A stretch of 61,050 bases of DNA, the filler included, from Circinaria calcarea (Eukaryota): NCBI GenBank assembly GCA_051942165.1. It is 16 parts of 16 records of this genome, joined end to end, with 100 filler letters (N's around TTAATTAATTAA, not from the genome) between each part and the next. Parts side by side here need not be neighbours in the genome. Positions count along the whole stretch, not along the records: positions 11,506 to 15,239 come from JAVECS010002649.1; 15 more parts are not named here. One strand, written 5' to 3'. The notes beneath the pieces were generated by a model. That model did no database searches, had not been told where the DNA came from, and saw nothing but the letters and a program-made list of their open reading frames with translations. The translations under genes were made by a program, and so were the position numbers. Below, piece by piece: positions 3,737-16,474 of the stretch. Within the stretch, counting starts at the first letter, position 1; the number at the start of each line of letters is the position of its first letter.

Positions 3737-3836
3737 NNNNNNNNNNNNNNNNNNNNNNNNNNNNNNNNNNNNNNNNNNNNTTAATTAATTAANNNNNNNN
3801 NNNNNNNNNNNNNNNNNNNNNNNNNNNNNNNNNNNN
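3737..3836. other. Artificial contig spacer, first of 15. The others are at 7572-7671, 11406-11505, 15240-15339, 19073-19172, 22904-23003, 26733-26832, 30561-30660, 34386-34485, 38207-38306, 42023-42122, 45834-45933, 49644-49743, 53451-53550 and 57251-57350
   Basis: Each is an identical 100-bp block, N44-TTAATTAATTAA-N44. The segments between them decrease steadily in length and genes are cut at the spacers. Confidence 0.98.
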
Positions 3837-11505: not shown

Positions 11506-11796
11506 TCTATTATCGGCATTGCGATTGCATCCTCCGTCTTTCAAAATATACTGAAATCGCAACTCTGGGGGAGATTCGGTGACAAGAAAGATGCCGCCGC
11601 AACCATCTCAAGGATCCGCGACAGCCTAGATGAGATCAGATATCTATCTCCAGAATGGAAACAAGGCGTTATGGACGCCTATATGGATGCCTTGCGAGGG
11701 GTCTTCTTGATTCTACTCGGAATAGGGGTTTTGGGAGCAATGGTGAGCTTGCTAATGCGCGAGCACAAGCTCCACAGCAATCTGGCAAGAAAGTGA
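11506..11796 (+). CDS. MFS DHA2/Vba-like transporter, C-terminus (5' truncated)
   Basis: IGIAIASSVFQNIL...IRDSLDEI...VMDAYMDALRGVFLILLGIGVLGAMVSLLMREHKLHSNLARK*. Confidence 0.85.
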   Translation, partial: SIIGIAIASSVFQNILKSQLWGRFGDKKDAAATISRIRDSLDEIRYLSPEWKQGVMDAYMDALRGVFLILLGIGVLGAMVSLLMREHKLHSNLARK

Positions 11797-12362
11797 AATA
11801 TGCATAGAGAATAGCGATATACTATACAACGGATATTCTTACCTGCCATAGGGGATTTGTCTGATGTGGCACTCATACCTGGAATGTAGATACATCGATC
11901 TATAAATATCGTCCCTGTCCTATTGCTGCGCCAACCTTCTTTCGTCCATTCTATCCGCCGCAATCCTTTTTACAAAGCCTAGTCTTGTACTACAACTGAT
12001 ACAATCCCATCGTTTCCTATCGATGTCTTCAGCACGATTTGGAATCTCTGATTGTGGTATATCTTCATTGGCTGAATAAATATGCAGTAACATGTTCCGG
12101 AGTGTGCATGGGCGCGTAATTGTGGCGTGCTCGCCACATCTTTACATGGTTTGTAGGATGCATTGCCATGAGCGATTCGCTGGTGAACAATCCTCCCGGT
12201 TTGCTCGTTCTTATCAATTATATTCCTGTCTGCCTGTCATACTTCGCTACATCACTTTCTTTCTACAAACGTGCTCCATTGCCTAGTCAGTCCCTTTGCC
12301 TACCTACCTGTGACAAGCTCTCGAAAGACTTGCCTTGAGCTTGATTGTGAAGTCCCTTCTGT

Positions 12363-14003
12363 ATGTCAAACACTACATGCGGGTTTCCTGGTAACTCTGA
12401 CATCTATGGCGTTGGTATCCGCATTGGTTATTATACCCAGGCTCTGGCAGCCTGGCACGCGAACTTCTTTTTTCTTCGCGAGGCCAAAGGCTTGCGTGCT
12501 GTTAATGGGTTATTCTTGTTAGCTTTGGTTATAGTCGTCCTAATTTATGCGCACAACGCCCAAGACACCCACGCTATTGAAGTTTTCCTCCTCATGCAGA
12601 TTGGATTCTGTCTTGGTTCTGTCAGCATCATGGACTCAACGAAATATAGTTCTCGATACCTTCGGCTGTCCAAAGAGAATTCGATAATAAGACTCGTCCT
12701 TTTCAACTTTGGTCTTGCATATAACTTATACTTTTGGTGGTTTGGACTCGAAATCTTGCAGGAGACGCCATGCGGAACGTACGCCTTTTATTTCGTGCGC
12801 GCTAATCTATATGGGAGTATGCGGACTGTTATGAAGGTGTTTGCGATCGCTGGCTTGGTCTGGAGAACGATTTTTACAACCTTTTGGGCTATGGGCATGG
12901 TAATTCGTCGCCACCGCTTCAAAGCGGCTAGGGCAAGTTTCGTTCGGAATACCAGTTCCGCAGAAACGGAGCAGTTTGTGCAGGTAGAGCACCAAACATC
13001 GAGCCCAGTCTTGCATACGTCAGCTCCCAAGCAAGAGTCTGACGGGACCATTGTTGCATTGGTGGCAGCTGCCCGAGACGAGGGGGATCAGCATCAAATT
13101 CAAAGCTCTACTCAACAAGCACTGCCGCCAACGATAGAAACAGACTGCAGCAGAACAGATCACGCCGCTGAAGAAGCAAATAGTCCTCCCACTGTACACC
13201 CGGACTTTCCACAAGAAAGGCTTGCGAGACCAACGATCGATATGCTGGTGAGATTCCAGAAAATCTATGAGGCAGAGCTGTTCTTGGAGAAAGTGTTTTT
13301 CATTTCTCTTGCATCCCCAATCTTGCAAGGGGAAAAGCACTCACTCCGCATTTTTGGCTACAGTGTGCAAATAACTATACCGAGATTCGGCAATCAGCAT
13401 AGCCAGAGTACGAAGTTTTTCTCCAGTATGACACGTACAGCACGGGCCACCTGGGCCGACGACAAGAACACACGATACATCCGAGAGACCCTGTCCGTTC
13501 ATAGCAAAGCAACAGAATCACAAATCTATCGGTGGCCATTCATAGTCAGCCGCATGCTCGAGCTCAAAGCTACAAGTGCACTTCCAGACTGGCGCGCGGT
13601 TGCCATCGCCTCTGATATACAGCTTTCGCAAATGCCCCTGACTATCTCCACCCGCGTTTGGGTCTACATGGCAGTCCAGAGCTTCCTGATTATAGCGATT
13701 CTCATCGTTCAGATTGAATTGACAACTATTTGGAATTCCATAGACGGCATACAAAACTTGAACACGGTAGGAGAGTTGGTTCCATTTATACTGGGAGTTG
13801 GAGGGCTTGTAAAGGTCGTCTGGGGTAAGTGGTGTGAGCTTAGAAAGGGGGTGAAGGAGGACGACGAGCTGGAGAGGAGGCAGCTGACAGAGTATGAGAT
13901 GGCAATGCAGAAATATTTGGGCTGGAAGAAAGGAAAAGTCGATCAAGCACAAGCAGAGGAGGTATCCAGATTAGAAGCCGTCGTCACTTCCACAGCGACT
14001 TAA
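12363..14003 (+). CDS. Uncharacterised fungal multi-pass membrane protein, 546 aa
   Basis: Single long ORF with N-terminal GNSDIYGVGIRIGYYTQ, about 6 N-terminal TMs, a large loop, and a C-terminal IELTTIWNSIDG...GELVPFILGVG TM pair. Confidence 0.8.
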   Translation: MSNTTCGFPGNSDIYGVGIRIGYYTQALAAWHANFFFLREAKGLRAVNGLFLLALVIVVLIYAHNAQDTHAIEVFLLMQIGFCLGSVSIMDSTKYSSRYLRLSKENSIIRLVLFNFGLAYNLYFWWFGLEILQETPCGTYAFYFVRANLYGSMRTVMKVFAIAGLVWRTIFTTFWAMGMVIRRHRFKAARASFVRNTSSAETEQFVQVEHQTSSPVLHTSAPKQESDGTIVALVAAARDEGDQHQIQSSTQQALPPTIETDCSRTDHAAEEANSPPTVHPDFPQERLARPTIDMLVRFQKIYEAELFLEKVFFISLASPILQGEKHSLRIFGYSVQITIPRFGNQHSQSTKFFSSMTRTARATWADDKNTRYIRETLSVHSKATESQIYRWPFIVSRMLELKATSALPDWRAVAIASDIQLSQMPLTISTRVWVYMAVQSFLIIAILIVQIELTTIWNSIDGIQNLNTVGELVPFILGVGGLVKVVWGKWCELRKGVKEDDELERRQLTEYEMAMQKYLGWKKGKVDQAQAEEVSRLEAVVTSTAT

Positions 14004-14586
14004 TCCATTTCAATTCTCATGTCCCATGCTCAGGCTCCTCCAGAAGAAAGCAAACCGTTGCAATCAATCACCATTAAGACATTGTCGCCAGCCGGGATTG
14101 AAGGTCAACAAACCGGGGTACATCAACGGGCGAGCAATGTCAAATCAAGATCAAATAACTATTTATATCAACCAATCATCGTGCTCCTTAGGTCCTGGAC
14201 GCGCAATGTCCCGCAAGGCTGAGGAGGCGCCCCCTCCGTTTCAAGGATTCGTCCAAGTTTCCCGTGTGGCGTGCCAAGGAAATACTGCGTAGCCGTCCGA
14301 TCATCTCTACTATACATATTAATCCACCTGAGGCCTTTCGATACTCTCCCTTTCCTGTTCTTTAGTTCACCTGTCGGACTGTACATATCTCTCTATTATA
14401 TCGAGTTCTATATAAAGTCTTAGTAAGTACTTCCTATCCCCCAATACTCTCAACCTACTCAAAGAAGCCGGACTGACGGGCCTCCCCTCCTTTAGACTCC
14501 TTTAACGATTGCGAGGTGCATCTATACCTATAAGAGCCCTTTGATTATATCACTTCGCCCACTCACACAAGCCGTACAACGCAATC

Positions 14587-14757
14587 ATGTGTTCCACCAC
14601 GATTTCCACCCCAATCAATAACGTCCTCCCCACCTCTTCTTCCTCCTCCATCACCAGCATAGGCAAGCCAGCCGGTACCGAACCGGGAAGGACCAAGTGT
14701 ATTGAGTGCGATGGATATGAATGTTGCTGTATTCCGATTCCGTGCACCATTATGTAA
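14587..14757 (+). CDS. 56-aa Cys-rich peptide ending in a CaaX box (CTIM)
   Basis: MCSTTISTPINNVLPTSSSSSITSIGKPAGTEPGRTKCIECDGYECCCIPIPCTIM*. Good start context (gcaatcATG), an in-frame upstream stop, and a candidate 5'UTR intron at 14423-14495. Confidence 0.7.
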   Translation: MCSTTISTPINNVLPTSSSSSITSIGKPAGTEPGRTKCIECDGYECCCIPIPCTIM

Positions 14758-15403
14758 ATGAATTGGGATGAGAGTTAAGATGATGGGATGGGAGTTAGAA
14801 ATGATGGGATGAGAATCGAGATGATGGGATCGCTTGAGTGGATAGAGGATGGGATGATGGGTTGTAAGCTTGGCATATTGATGGATGGGGGAGGGGGTTT
14901 AGAGGCAGAGAACGGTACTGAAGGGTAAGCATGAAGAGGGGAGGACTGGGAGAGTGGATGCTTATTATGATTTACGACCTTTCTCTTCCCTTGCCCAATT
15001 TATACAATCATTACTCTCATCCGTTTATTCTCTTCACTGCTACTCTACCACCGTTCGATTGTTCACATGCAGTAGCAAAACCCGACGTTTTTTGTTTGAA
15101 AACGTTGTGTAATTCCTAGGACCCGGAATATCCTCAATGCAAGACCTGCACTCAACATCCAAATTTCCCCCCATCCCAGCAGGTCCAACGAAAGCTCAAA
15201 CATATATGCATTTCTCCCTCCTCCCTTCCTCCCTTATAGNNNNNNNNNNNNNNNNNNNNNNNNNNNNNNNNNNNNNNNNNNNNTTAATTAATTAANNNNN
15301 NNNNNNNNNNNNNNNNNNNNNNNNNNNNNNNNNNNNNNNCCCACTTCTTAGCCTCCACCCACTTTCCCCCCCCTCAAAACTTCCCTCTGAACTCCCCAAA
15401 ACC

Positions 15404-16474
15404 CTACCGAATCTTATCGATCCTCTTCCGCGCCACATTAATCTTCCCCTCCACCCTCGTCACATCCTCATCCAGCATCCCCAGCATCTGATTCTGCACC
15501 ACCAGTTCCTCCTGGATCGCCACACCCAACTCCTTCTGCCGCGTCACCGCCTGCAGCAGCGCTCGCACGTCCTCGTCTTGCTCTTCCATCATCTGCTGCT
15601 GCAGCTGCAGCACCCCCTGGTTGTCCAGCTCCCTGGTCCGTTTTGTTTCTTTGCCGAGGACGCGGCCAGGCTTGGCGGTGCCGGGGTGGGCATGGGAGGA
15701 AGGGGAGGTGATGAGGGCTTTTTTGTCCTCGACGGTGGCGTCGACGCGAGATTTGGCGACCATGGCATTGAGTAAGGATTCCAGCGTGTCTTTTTCTTTG
15801 CGGGCGCTGGCAACGAGGTCCCGCCGGCGACGGACTTCACCCTCGCCAAGCTTTTCGCTGCCCCAGTCGTCTTGGCTCTTGAGGCCTTGGTCGAGGGAGG
15901 CGATCATGGTGCCGGCTTTGACCAGGCATTTCTTTGCCTGCGCGCCGCTTTCATGTTGGGCTTGGGCGTTGGAGGCTTGGTCGCGTTGGGTGAGGTGTAG
16001 GCGGGCATTATGGAGTTGAACCTTAAGATCGCGGTGGCAGTCTAGCCAGACGACTGGGTCGGTGACAGGACCGTTGTTGGAGATGGCGCTGTGGAGGGTG
16101 GATGCGACGCTGGATTTGGAGCTGAGGTTGCTGGGGAGGTTGAGGAAGGTTCGCCAGGCACTTGTGTCTCGCCATCGCGCGTCATCTATCTCGTTGATAG
16201 TTTTGAGGTAGGCTTCCAGGCCTTTCCGACGCTGTTCGGTGAGTTCGGGGTTGTGAGTTGTGCTGGAGAACCAAGATTTGGCGGGGATGGAGGCGGGTGG
16301 AGGTGCGCCAGCTTGTGCGGTAAGAGCGCTGTGGAGGGTGGTGCAGTCGGAGTAACGCTTCTGAATGGTAAATGAGCGGAGGGGGAGACGGAGACTGATG
16401 TTGTAGACGGTGTAGGGTTTAGGTGTCGAGGAGAGCTGTGCGCTGGGGATGGAAATCTCCACCGCGGGCGCCAT
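15404..16474 (-). CDS. VAM7: Vacuolar Qc-SNARE with PX domain
   Basis: N-terminal PX domain (YTVYNI...IQKRYSD...EQRRKGLEAYL) and a C-terminal SNARE helix (ETKRTRELDNQGVLQLQQQMMEEQD...QNQML), with no TM segment. Confidence 0.93.
   Translation of the reverse strand: MAPAVEISIPSAQLSSTPKPYTVYNISLRLPLRSFTIQKRYSDCTTLHSALTAQAGAPPPASIPAKSWFSSTTHNPELTEQRRKGLEAYLKTINEIDDARWRDTSAWRTFLNLPSNLSSKSSVASTLHSAISNNGPVTDPVVWLDCHRDLKVQLHNARLHLTQRDQASNAQAQHESGAQAKKCLVKAGTMIASLDQGLKSQDDWGSEKLGEGEVRRRRDLVASARKEKDTLESLLNAMVAKSRVDATVEDKKALITSPSSHAHPGTAKPGRVLGKETKRTRELDNQGVLQLQQQMMEEQDEDVRALLQAVTRQKELGVAIQEELVVQNQMLGMLDEDVTRVEGKINVARKRIDKIR

Follow-up and report, generated by a model that had tools for sequence, protein, structure and literature searches.

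The small gene reported here lies in the window, by which we mean the whole stretch of 61,050 nucleotides (nt) that was analysed, and it encodes a Cys-rich peptide of 56 amino acids (aa) that ends in a CaaX box (Table 1). We find that its open reading frame (ORF) is a real, strongly conserved protein-coding gene and that it is a new member, from a previously unreported class, of an old family of ∼50- to 60-aa microproteins of filamentous ascomycetes, which includes BCIN_13g03330 and FGSG_05361. A sequence-only reading of the window had pointed to this ORF with its Ser/Thr-rich leader and CaaX end, to an A at position −3 and to an in-frame stop codon upstream, and all of these are present exactly as claimed. 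The start codon has the context AATCATG, the upstream in-frame TGA ends at 14544, i.e., 42 nt before the ORF, and the coding sequence (CDS) is uninterrupted by introns. The Ser/Thr-rich stretch of the peptide comprises residues 3 to 24, D-G-Y occupies residues 42 to 44, and the C terminus is KCIECDGYECCCIPIPCTIM, directly followed by the stop codon. Seven of the 56 residues are Cys. The conserved C-terminal block holds a CxxC motif, a CCC motif and the terminal CaaX box (C53-T-I-M). As read from the sequence, the peptide has neither a signal peptide nor a hydrophobic N-terminal segment.

Table 1. Features of the gene for the Cys-rich CaaX microprotein and of its surroundings, in positions of the window.
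Feature	Position	Strand	Basis or remarks
Complete CDS of the Cys-rich CaaX microprotein (56 aa + TAA)	14587..14757	+	ORF, homologues, purifying selection
Conserved C-terminal block, residues 35-56	14689..14754	+	R/K-T-K-C-x-E-C-D-G-Y-E-C-C-C-I-P-I-P-C-T-I-M
N-terminal Ser/Thr-rich block, about residues 9-27	14611..14667	+	More diverged in the window: PINNVLPTSSSSSITSIGK
Candidate 73-nt intron in the 5' untranslated region (UTR), GTAAGT ... aCTGAC ... TTTAG	14423..14495	+	Motifs and comparison with relatives; GTAAGT 14423-14428, CTGAC 14473-14477, TTTAG ending 14495
ATG-free leader	14209..14586	+	Closest ATG upstream (any frame) at 381 nt from the start codon
TATA-like box TATATAAAG, then pyrimidine-rich tract	14409..14417	+	GC skew -0.46 at 14350-14649
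Five GATGATGGGAT-like direct repeats, ~20-nt spacing, in the presumed 3' UTR	14779..14864	+	G-rich, C-poor stretch (GC skew +0.53)
546-aa ORF, upstream neighbour on the same contig	12363..14003	+	No Pfam family; hydrophobic stretches by eye

The conclusion that the ORF is a gene is based on its relatives and on the way in which they evolve. First, a word-indexed protein search returned 42 matches (30 to 98 aa) at E ≤ 10, the best at 7.7e-17 with 70% identity and the three weakest at E 0.013 to 0.15, and an exhaustive profile search over 1.84 billion representatives returned 47 matches at E ≤ 0.001 and 35 at E ≤ 1e-10. Second, 17 of the 18 loci returned by a metagenome scan encode relatives. 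One of these (L015) is truncated by the end of its contig and was excluded from the CDS analyses; in all 16 complete loci, the ATG-initiated frame is open and the stop codon stands directly behind the CaaX box. The remaining locus (L018) was rejected as a false relative with 36% identity and no CaaX end. Third, among 17 CDSs (the window and the 16 complete loci), the mean proportion of synonymous differences (pS) is 0.68, close to saturation of these sites, while that of nonsynonymous differences (pN) is 0.20. For residues 35 to 56, the corresponding values are 0.84 and 0.056, and for the N-terminal part 0.61 and 0.31. Selection on the coding sequence is strongly purifying, and in the tail it is extreme. 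Fourth, mean pairwise DNA identity is 0.65 over the CDS and 0.77 over its last 66 nt vs. 0.23 to 0.25 in the 150-nt flanks; L003 and L012, near-duplicates of L002 and L011, were removed for this comparison as well as for the six-frame and intron tests described below. The sequence-only reading had proposed conservation of the Cys/CaaX tail with dN/dS below 1 as a check and had stated that the lack of such conservation would speak against the gene; the tail is clearly conserved in this manner, with homologues in several ascomycete classes.

These data also bear on the possibility that the ORF arose by chance or that the conserved element is on the opposite strand, where an antisense ORF of 66 aa extends over 14550 to 14750. 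In a first tblastx comparison of the contig with the loci, antisense-frame matches ranked top, and the antisense frame that shares the wobble position is open in 11 of the 17 CDSs and has a lowish pN/pS of 0.45. However, among the six frames pN/pS is lowest in the sense frame (0.30, with 1.27 to 1.47 for the other four), which decides for the sense strand, and the start codon and the stop codon behind the CaaX box are kept in every complete locus. Because sense and antisense share third positions, a mirror effect of this type is expected, and we regard this possibility as effectively refuted.

Family members have a common architecture consisting of an M(A)C start, frequent though not found in all of them, then a block rich in Ser and Thr, a linker that varies and contains indels, and the near-invariant tail K-T-K-C-x-E-C-D-G-Y-E-C-C-C-(I-P)-I-P-C-a-a-X. 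In an alignment of 28 sequences, P15, S17, S21, T36, K37, C38, E40, C41, Y44, E45, C46, C47, C48, P52 and C53 are invariant, and A19 and I25 are conserved at ≥90%. The spacing between CCC and the CaaX Cys differs by one I-P unit (IPIPC vs. IPC). The Ser/Thr-rich block reads PINNVLPTSSSSSITSIGKP in the window, and its family consensus in Leotiomycetes and Sordariomycetes is LVNRNGPGSAASSTIESIVKP. Among 90 predicted family proteins, a redundant and Fusarium-heavy sample, 73 have a Cxxx end directly behind the core, i.e., CTVM and CTIL (29 each), CVIL (five), CTIM as in the window (four), CVVM (three), and CVVI, CVVL and CIIT (one each). These 73 proteins, and likewise the products of the 16 complete loci, end in C-[TVI]-[VI]-[MLIT].

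Several database models (P0049, P0056, P0060, P0063-P0068, P0071, P0072 and P0074-P0077) are interrupted behind KC-x-E or DGYE, where unrelated residues follow, often with Val first (a read-through GTN codon), and in P0049 the motif resumes after 26 residues. These interrupted models therefore point to a coding-region intron in some lineages that has been overlooked by gene callers. P0067 (678 aa, with 10 weak repeat matches) was set aside as an unrelated repeat protein, so that no long, fused version of the family protein was observed. A Pfam search with the window peptide and the relatives P0004 and P0023 yielded no family at E ≤ 1. The single match in a PDB sequence search with the family profile, a cytochrome at E 0.02, was rejected as spurious. 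In an Atlas feature search, the protein's own unnamed ascomycete clusters were returned at 0.97, 0.90 and 0.89.

Full-length relatives of about 50 to 60 aa occur in several classes of filamentous ascomycetes. They were found in Leotiomycetes (Botrytis, Cadophora, Hyaloscypha, Mollisia, Diplocarpon, Rhynchosporium, Drepanopeziza, Rutstroemia, Stromatinia and Calycina), in the powdery mildew Podosphaera (Erysiphales), in Sordariomycetes (Fusarium, the Colletotrichum acutatum complex, Apiospora, Pseudomassariella, Microdochium, Cytospora, Sporothrix, Claviceps and Ustilaginoidea), and in Pezizomycetes (the truffle relative Choiromyces venosus). A divergent member (L017) sits on a Dothideomycete-like contig, on which a LanC-like gene is closest to that of Coniosporium apollinis (64%). 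No named member from Eurotiomycetes or Sordariales was among the matches, which is not evidence of absence because small genes often are uncalled. A lichen-forming fungus or a relative is the most likely source of the window itself, which is Lecanoromycete-like, judging by the next contig of the window, where a gene for a Vam7-like PX-domain SNARE (PF00787, 356 aa) is located at 15404-16474 on the minus strand; the best named relatives of its product are from Lecanoromycetes (Icmadophila ericetorum with 71% identity, then Hypocenomyce, Toensbergia, Lasallia and others).

Lipopeptide pheromones of the a-factor type are a long-standing gap in most filamentous ascomycetes outside the Sordariomycetes. 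[quoted passage not shown] The Leotiomycete gene was found in at least 111 of the 124 species studied and encodes 45 to 64 aa with a Ser/Thr-rich N terminus, a GY motif and mostly a CTVM end; it was claimed as the first such gene outside Sordariomycetes, and the authors themselves list doubts (PMC10569646). The window peptide aligns with BCIN_13g03330 over the whole length of the latter (supplementary file 7, PMC10569646), and its Leotiomycete matches have E values of 7.7e-17 to 1e-9 at a query coverage of 54 to 100% (84 to 100% except for two). Identity to named Leotiomycete members is 54 to 77% in local BLASTP alignments or 56 to 66% over the family alignment. Beyond homology, the two agree in length, in the Ser/Thr-rich N terminus with the GY motif, in the core K-T-K-C-x-E-C-D-G-Y-E-C-C-C-I-P-I-P-C and in a CT[VI]M end. 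By contrast, the N-terminal block has diverged in the window (NNVLPTSSSSS vs. NRNGPGSAASS), and while the paper describes the gene for Leotiomycetes only, the window member is Lecanoromycete-like. CTIM, the end of the window peptide, is absent from the end variants listed there, which are CTVM, CVVM, CIVM, CTIL, CSIM and CSVM (PMC10569646). In the literature collection searched, BCIN_13g03330 was found only in Wilson et al., FGSG_05361 with its aliases and the motif strings turned up in no other paper, and a 2026 paper on Ceratocystidaceae does no more than cite Wilson et al.; searches for CaaX ends together with metallothioneins in fungi, and for pheromones together with Lecanoromycetes, returned nothing relevant. 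Demonstrated in the present analysis are the occurrence of the family in lichen-type fungi, Dothideomycete-like fungi and truffle relatives, the presence of a member alongside a canonical pheromone gene in Fusarium, and the extreme purifying selection on the tail.

The sequence-only reading had likewise suggested an a-factor-like precursor. The proposal thus has a published counterpart in Leotiomycetes (PMC10569646), but the coexistence of the family gene with a canonical a-factor gene in Fusarium speaks against it. The 55-aa family member P0208 is FGSG_05361 in F. graminearum PH-1 and FOQG_04227 in F. oxysporum. The reference list of a-factors in Wilson et al. contains another, 21-aa precursor for Gibberella zeae (= F. 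graminearum), and many Colletotrichum species have their own, highly variable a-factor precursors there (PMC10569646). In F. oxysporum, MFa has been treated as the gene for the Ste3 ligand, with citation of Vitale et al. 2019 (PMC13097639, 2026), and judging by the qPCR primers printed in that source, MFa appears to be of the canonical type (PSTK.../...PGYP). Thus, at least in Fusarium, i.e., in F. graminearum and F. oxysporum, the family gene and a canonical a-factor gene coexist, and it is the canonical gene that fills the role of the Ste3 ligand gene. In these two relatives, the family gene is neither the orthologue nor a functional replacement of MFa/ppg2. Moreover, canonical a-factors were absent from the matches of the word-indexed and profile searches, and no sequence homology was detected in this way.

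Canonical a-factor precursors (S. cerevisiae MFA1/2, N. crassa mfa-1, G. zeae ppg2 and F. oxysporum MFa) resemble the family in being short, in lacking a signal peptide, in their Ser/Thr-rich start, in often having GY near the end and in their terminal CaaX/CpaX box, which is CTVM in G. zeae. They differ in length (21 to 40 aa for the single-copy forms vs. 50 to 60 aa), in the lack of a CxxC/CCC cluster, and in that they diverge rapidly between genera, whereas the family tail is near-invariant across classes. The sequence likeness between the two could reflect distant paralogy or convergence.

These comparisons argue against the window peptide being the a-factor-type pheromone precursor of its lineage, i.e., a peptide that would be farnesylated, N-terminally trimmed, carried out of the cell by a Ste6-type ABC transporter and recognised by Ste3, or, in a weaker form, a paralogous secreted lipopeptide signal for non-mating communication. 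We regard this explanation as unlikely, although a short precursor without a signal peptide that has a Ser/Thr-rich N terminus, a GY motif and a terminal CTIM is what it calls for. In addition to the coexistence in Fusarium, the near-invariance of the tail from Lecanoromycetes to Sordariomycetes is difficult to reconcile with it, given that the a-factors in the list of Wilson et al. vary widely even within Colletotrichum; the N-terminal block is conserved too, and the mature peptide would carry five further Cys residues, unlike any a-factor in that list (PMC10569646). Among the doubts of Wilson et al. is the unusually high conservation of the gene. They also report that 11 of the 12 species without a functional STE3 have kept it, and that in B. 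cinerea, M. fructicola and A. resinae its expression does not depend on mating type, with values of 46 to 198 reads per kilobase per million mapped reads in B. cinerea that are highest in sclerotia (PMC10569646). The pheromone genes of Leotiomycetes and of F. oxysporum are, however, not strictly mating-type regulated anyway (PMC10569646, PMC13097639).

We therefore lean, if only by a little, to a different reading, in which the window gene encodes a lipid-anchored Cys-cluster microprotein and not a classical mating-type-specific pheromone. A separate small lipidated Cys-rich family had been the second suggestion of the sequence-only reading, and the coexistence in Fusarium, the near-invariant tail and the reported expression and STE3 data favour it. 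After prenylation, CaaX ends are processed by Rce1/Ste24 and Ste14. Farnesyltransferase prefers M, S, Q or A as the last residue, and geranylgeranyltransferase I prefers L. In the mechanism that we suggest, C53 in CTIM would be prenylated via the CaaX pathway, followed by cleavage of -aaX and carboxyl methylation; CTIM predicts a farnesyl group and the CTIL and CVIL ends of other members predict a geranylgeranyl group. The mixture of M and L ends suggests that the family conserves a prenyl anchor and not one particular lipid. Cys residues located a few positions upstream of a prenylated Cys are the classical S-acylation sites in Ras/Rho tails. Similarly, the Cys residues of the CCC and CxxC motifs could be S-acylated, in that way generating a multiply lipidated membrane anchor; alternatively, they could make up a thiol/metal cluster. 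On this model, the product would work on the cytosolic side of a membrane or in the form of a lipidated peptide, outside classical a-factor/Ste3 signaling.

Two known systems are informative for comparison. The family has several Cys residues 5 to 7 positions upstream of the CaaX Cys and basic residues (K-T-K) nearby, as do the tails of Ras/Rho-type GTPases, in which such an arrangement holds the protein stably at the membrane; the GTPases differ in having a folded GTPase domain, while the family protein is little more than the tail and its acylation is putative. CYSTM proteins (PF12734) are small as well, with a hydrophilic N terminus and a Cys-rich, membrane-associating C terminus, and were returned by the Atlas search with a score of 0.77, which is a lead only (<0.9). 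The family, however, has no PF12734 match at E ≤ 1, and its tail, with only 11 residues behind the first C of CCC, has neither the length nor the hydrophobicity of a transmembrane helix and carries a CaaX box in its place. The family protein is thus not a CYSTM protein.

The lipid-anchor reading allows either chemistry for the Cys cluster and in this respect overlaps with a more specific explanation, in which the product is a prenyl-anchored metal-binding peptide (metallothionein- or metallochaperone-like, functionally a fungal counterpart of the heavy-metal-associated isoprenylated proteins, HIPPs, of plants) that chelates Cu or Zn at the membrane via CxxC and CCC. There are six invariant Cys residues within 16 residues, with the invariant acidic residues E40 and E45 next to them, and one Apiospora member carries the automatic database name 'Metallothionein'. 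An aromatic residue inside a Cys cluster is unusual for metallothioneins, which are recognized by a family model, a very high Cys content with CxC/CxxC motifs all along the chain and the rarity of aromatic residues. The window peptide does not have this profile: Tyr44 is invariant within the cluster, the overall Cys content is low, and neither a metallothionein family nor the HMA domain of HIPPs is matched in Pfam at E ≤ 1. What it has in common with both groups is the Cys cluster, which in HIPPs also occurs together with a C-terminal prenylation signal. The variable spacing between CCC and the CaaX Cys likewise does not favour a metal site, and AlphaFold2, run with the 28-sequence alignment, predicted no ordered fold and no secondary structure (mean pLDDT 43, pTM 0.13). 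Altogether, we consider metal binding as the defining function to be improbable.

Several points weigh against our preferred reading of a lipid-anchored microprotein. We infer, as distinct from what we observe, that the protein is prenylated, that it is acylated or binds metal, where in the cell it resides and that its role is not that of a pheromone. The AlphaFold2 model lends no support to a structured metal site, and it neither supports nor excludes a metal-dependent fold. Of the 90 predicted proteins, 17, distinct from the interrupted models, extend beyond the CaaX box; we read these as probable gene-model errors because models from the same or a sister species stop at the CaaX box (P0014 vs. 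P0015; P0035 vs. P0036 and P0048). They illustrate that genes of ∼170 nt can be overlooked or over-extended by gene callers. The coexistence with a canonical a-factor gene is established at the species level for Fusarium only and for Colletotrichum at the genus level only, and the Lecanoromycete-like placement comes from one protein on another contig of the concatenated record. Finally, the Ser/Thr-rich N terminus, the GY motif and the CTVM-type end are common to the family and to Sordariomycete a-factors; the a-factor of G. zeae ends in GYPLSCTVM, which leaves room for a distant common origin, and no alternative a-factor candidate was found in Leotiomycetes, where the family gene is so widespread (PMC10569646). 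The gene product may thus have a role as a pheromone or as a paralogous lipopeptide.

In a broader form, the lipid-anchor reading holds that the family is an unrecognised class of prenylated Cys-cluster microproteins that has been present since early Pezizomycotina, extends from Pezizomycetes to Sordariomycetes and to lichen-type fungi, and is not a mating pheromone. In its functional part, CxxC...CCC would serve as an anchor with several S-acylated Cys residues or as a thiol/metal site tethered to a membrane, with a role in development or stress, in line with the expression maximum in sclerotia of B. cinerea. We would give this proposal as a whole about an even chance. If it is true, the Leotiomycete gene has been wrongly labelled as an a-factor, and the Ste3 ligand outside Sordariomycetes has yet to be discovered. 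It has now become testable whether the family is an old second lipopeptide signal or a new type of microprotein with a lipid anchor and a Cys cluster, in which case the real a-factor is yet to be found.

The genes around the family members were also considered. The window consists of ∼16 contigs of ∼3.8 kb each, in slowly decreasing length, joined by 15 linkers of 44 N + TTAATTAATTAA + 44 N at positions 3781, 7616, 11450, 15284 ... 57295, and the contig with the small gene extends from 11506 to 15239. Because linkers separate the contigs, the Vam7-like gene, which lies beyond 15340, is not a true neighbour of the small gene. In five of seven loci scanned (L001, L005, L006, L007 and L011), the small gene is convergent with MED7, followed by a gene of the PAP2 superfamily. 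This arrangement is a housekeeping neighbourhood and not a biosynthetic cluster. The contigs of these five loci are of the Leotiomycete/Sordariomycete type.

The neighbourhoods are relevant to a further explanation, in which the peptide would give rise to a ribosomally synthesized and post-translationally modified product, e.g., with thioether cross-links between dehydrated Ser/Thr and Cys made by neighbouring enzymes. The order of a Ser/Thr-rich part followed by a Cys-rich part would suit such a precursor, and the downstream gene in L017 is LanC-like (PF05147, E 9e-34; L017:3814-4956, minus strand). However, LanC-like genes of this housekeeping type are widespread in fungi (984 proteins at E ≤ 1e-30), the small gene has one as a neighbour in only one of the seven loci scanned compared to the five with MED7 and PAP2, and no dehydratase, protease or transporter is clustered with the small gene. 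We consider this explanation highly improbable.

A homologue of the 546-aa ORF that precedes the small gene in the window adjoins the divergent member in L017 (1405-2031, minus strand; 35% identity over 147 aa, E 5e-26). The two genes are adjacent in these two distant lineages, in opposite relative orientation but with the 546-aa ORF or its homologue upstream of the small gene in both. An ancestral gene order, a functional tie or chance could each account for this adjacency.

Upstream of the small gene, the sequence-only reading had noted a GTAAGT...CTGAC...TTTAG intron and TATA-like boxes. We found the intron motifs at the positions that it gave, and a TATA-like box ahead of them (Table 1). 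With a relaxed fungal intron pattern (GT[AG][ACT]G[TC] ... CT[AG]A[CT] ... [CT]AG, in total roughly 35 to 130 nt), an intron-like element is present within 400 nt upstream of the start codon in nine of 13 non-redundant family loci, compared to an expectation of 0.63 from dinucleotide shuffling; none of 300 shuffled sets reached nine loci, and the background rate of the pattern is 251 in 2676 windows of 400 nt of the data. By our own reading, the nearest upstream ATG in several loci falls inside the candidate intron or shares bases with its 5' splice site. A 5'-UTR intron is thus probably a trait of the family, and the candidate in the window is a plausible instance. The leader without ATG codons would fit a long 5' UTR; gaps of ≥286 nt make up about 1% of the ATG-to-ATG gaps in the window. 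If the intron is real, TATATAAAG, which stops 6 nt short of its 5' splice site, cannot be the TATA box of the spliced transcript; it would lie within exon 1 or belong to an alternative, unspliced transcript.

On the 3' side, five of the six GATGATGGGAT-like matches in the window cluster directly behind the CDS, while 1.3 matches are expected in the whole window. In most relatives, the 3' flanks are likewise G-rich and C-poor and have GGGA/ATGG motifs, and the repeats may represent a 3'-UTR element.

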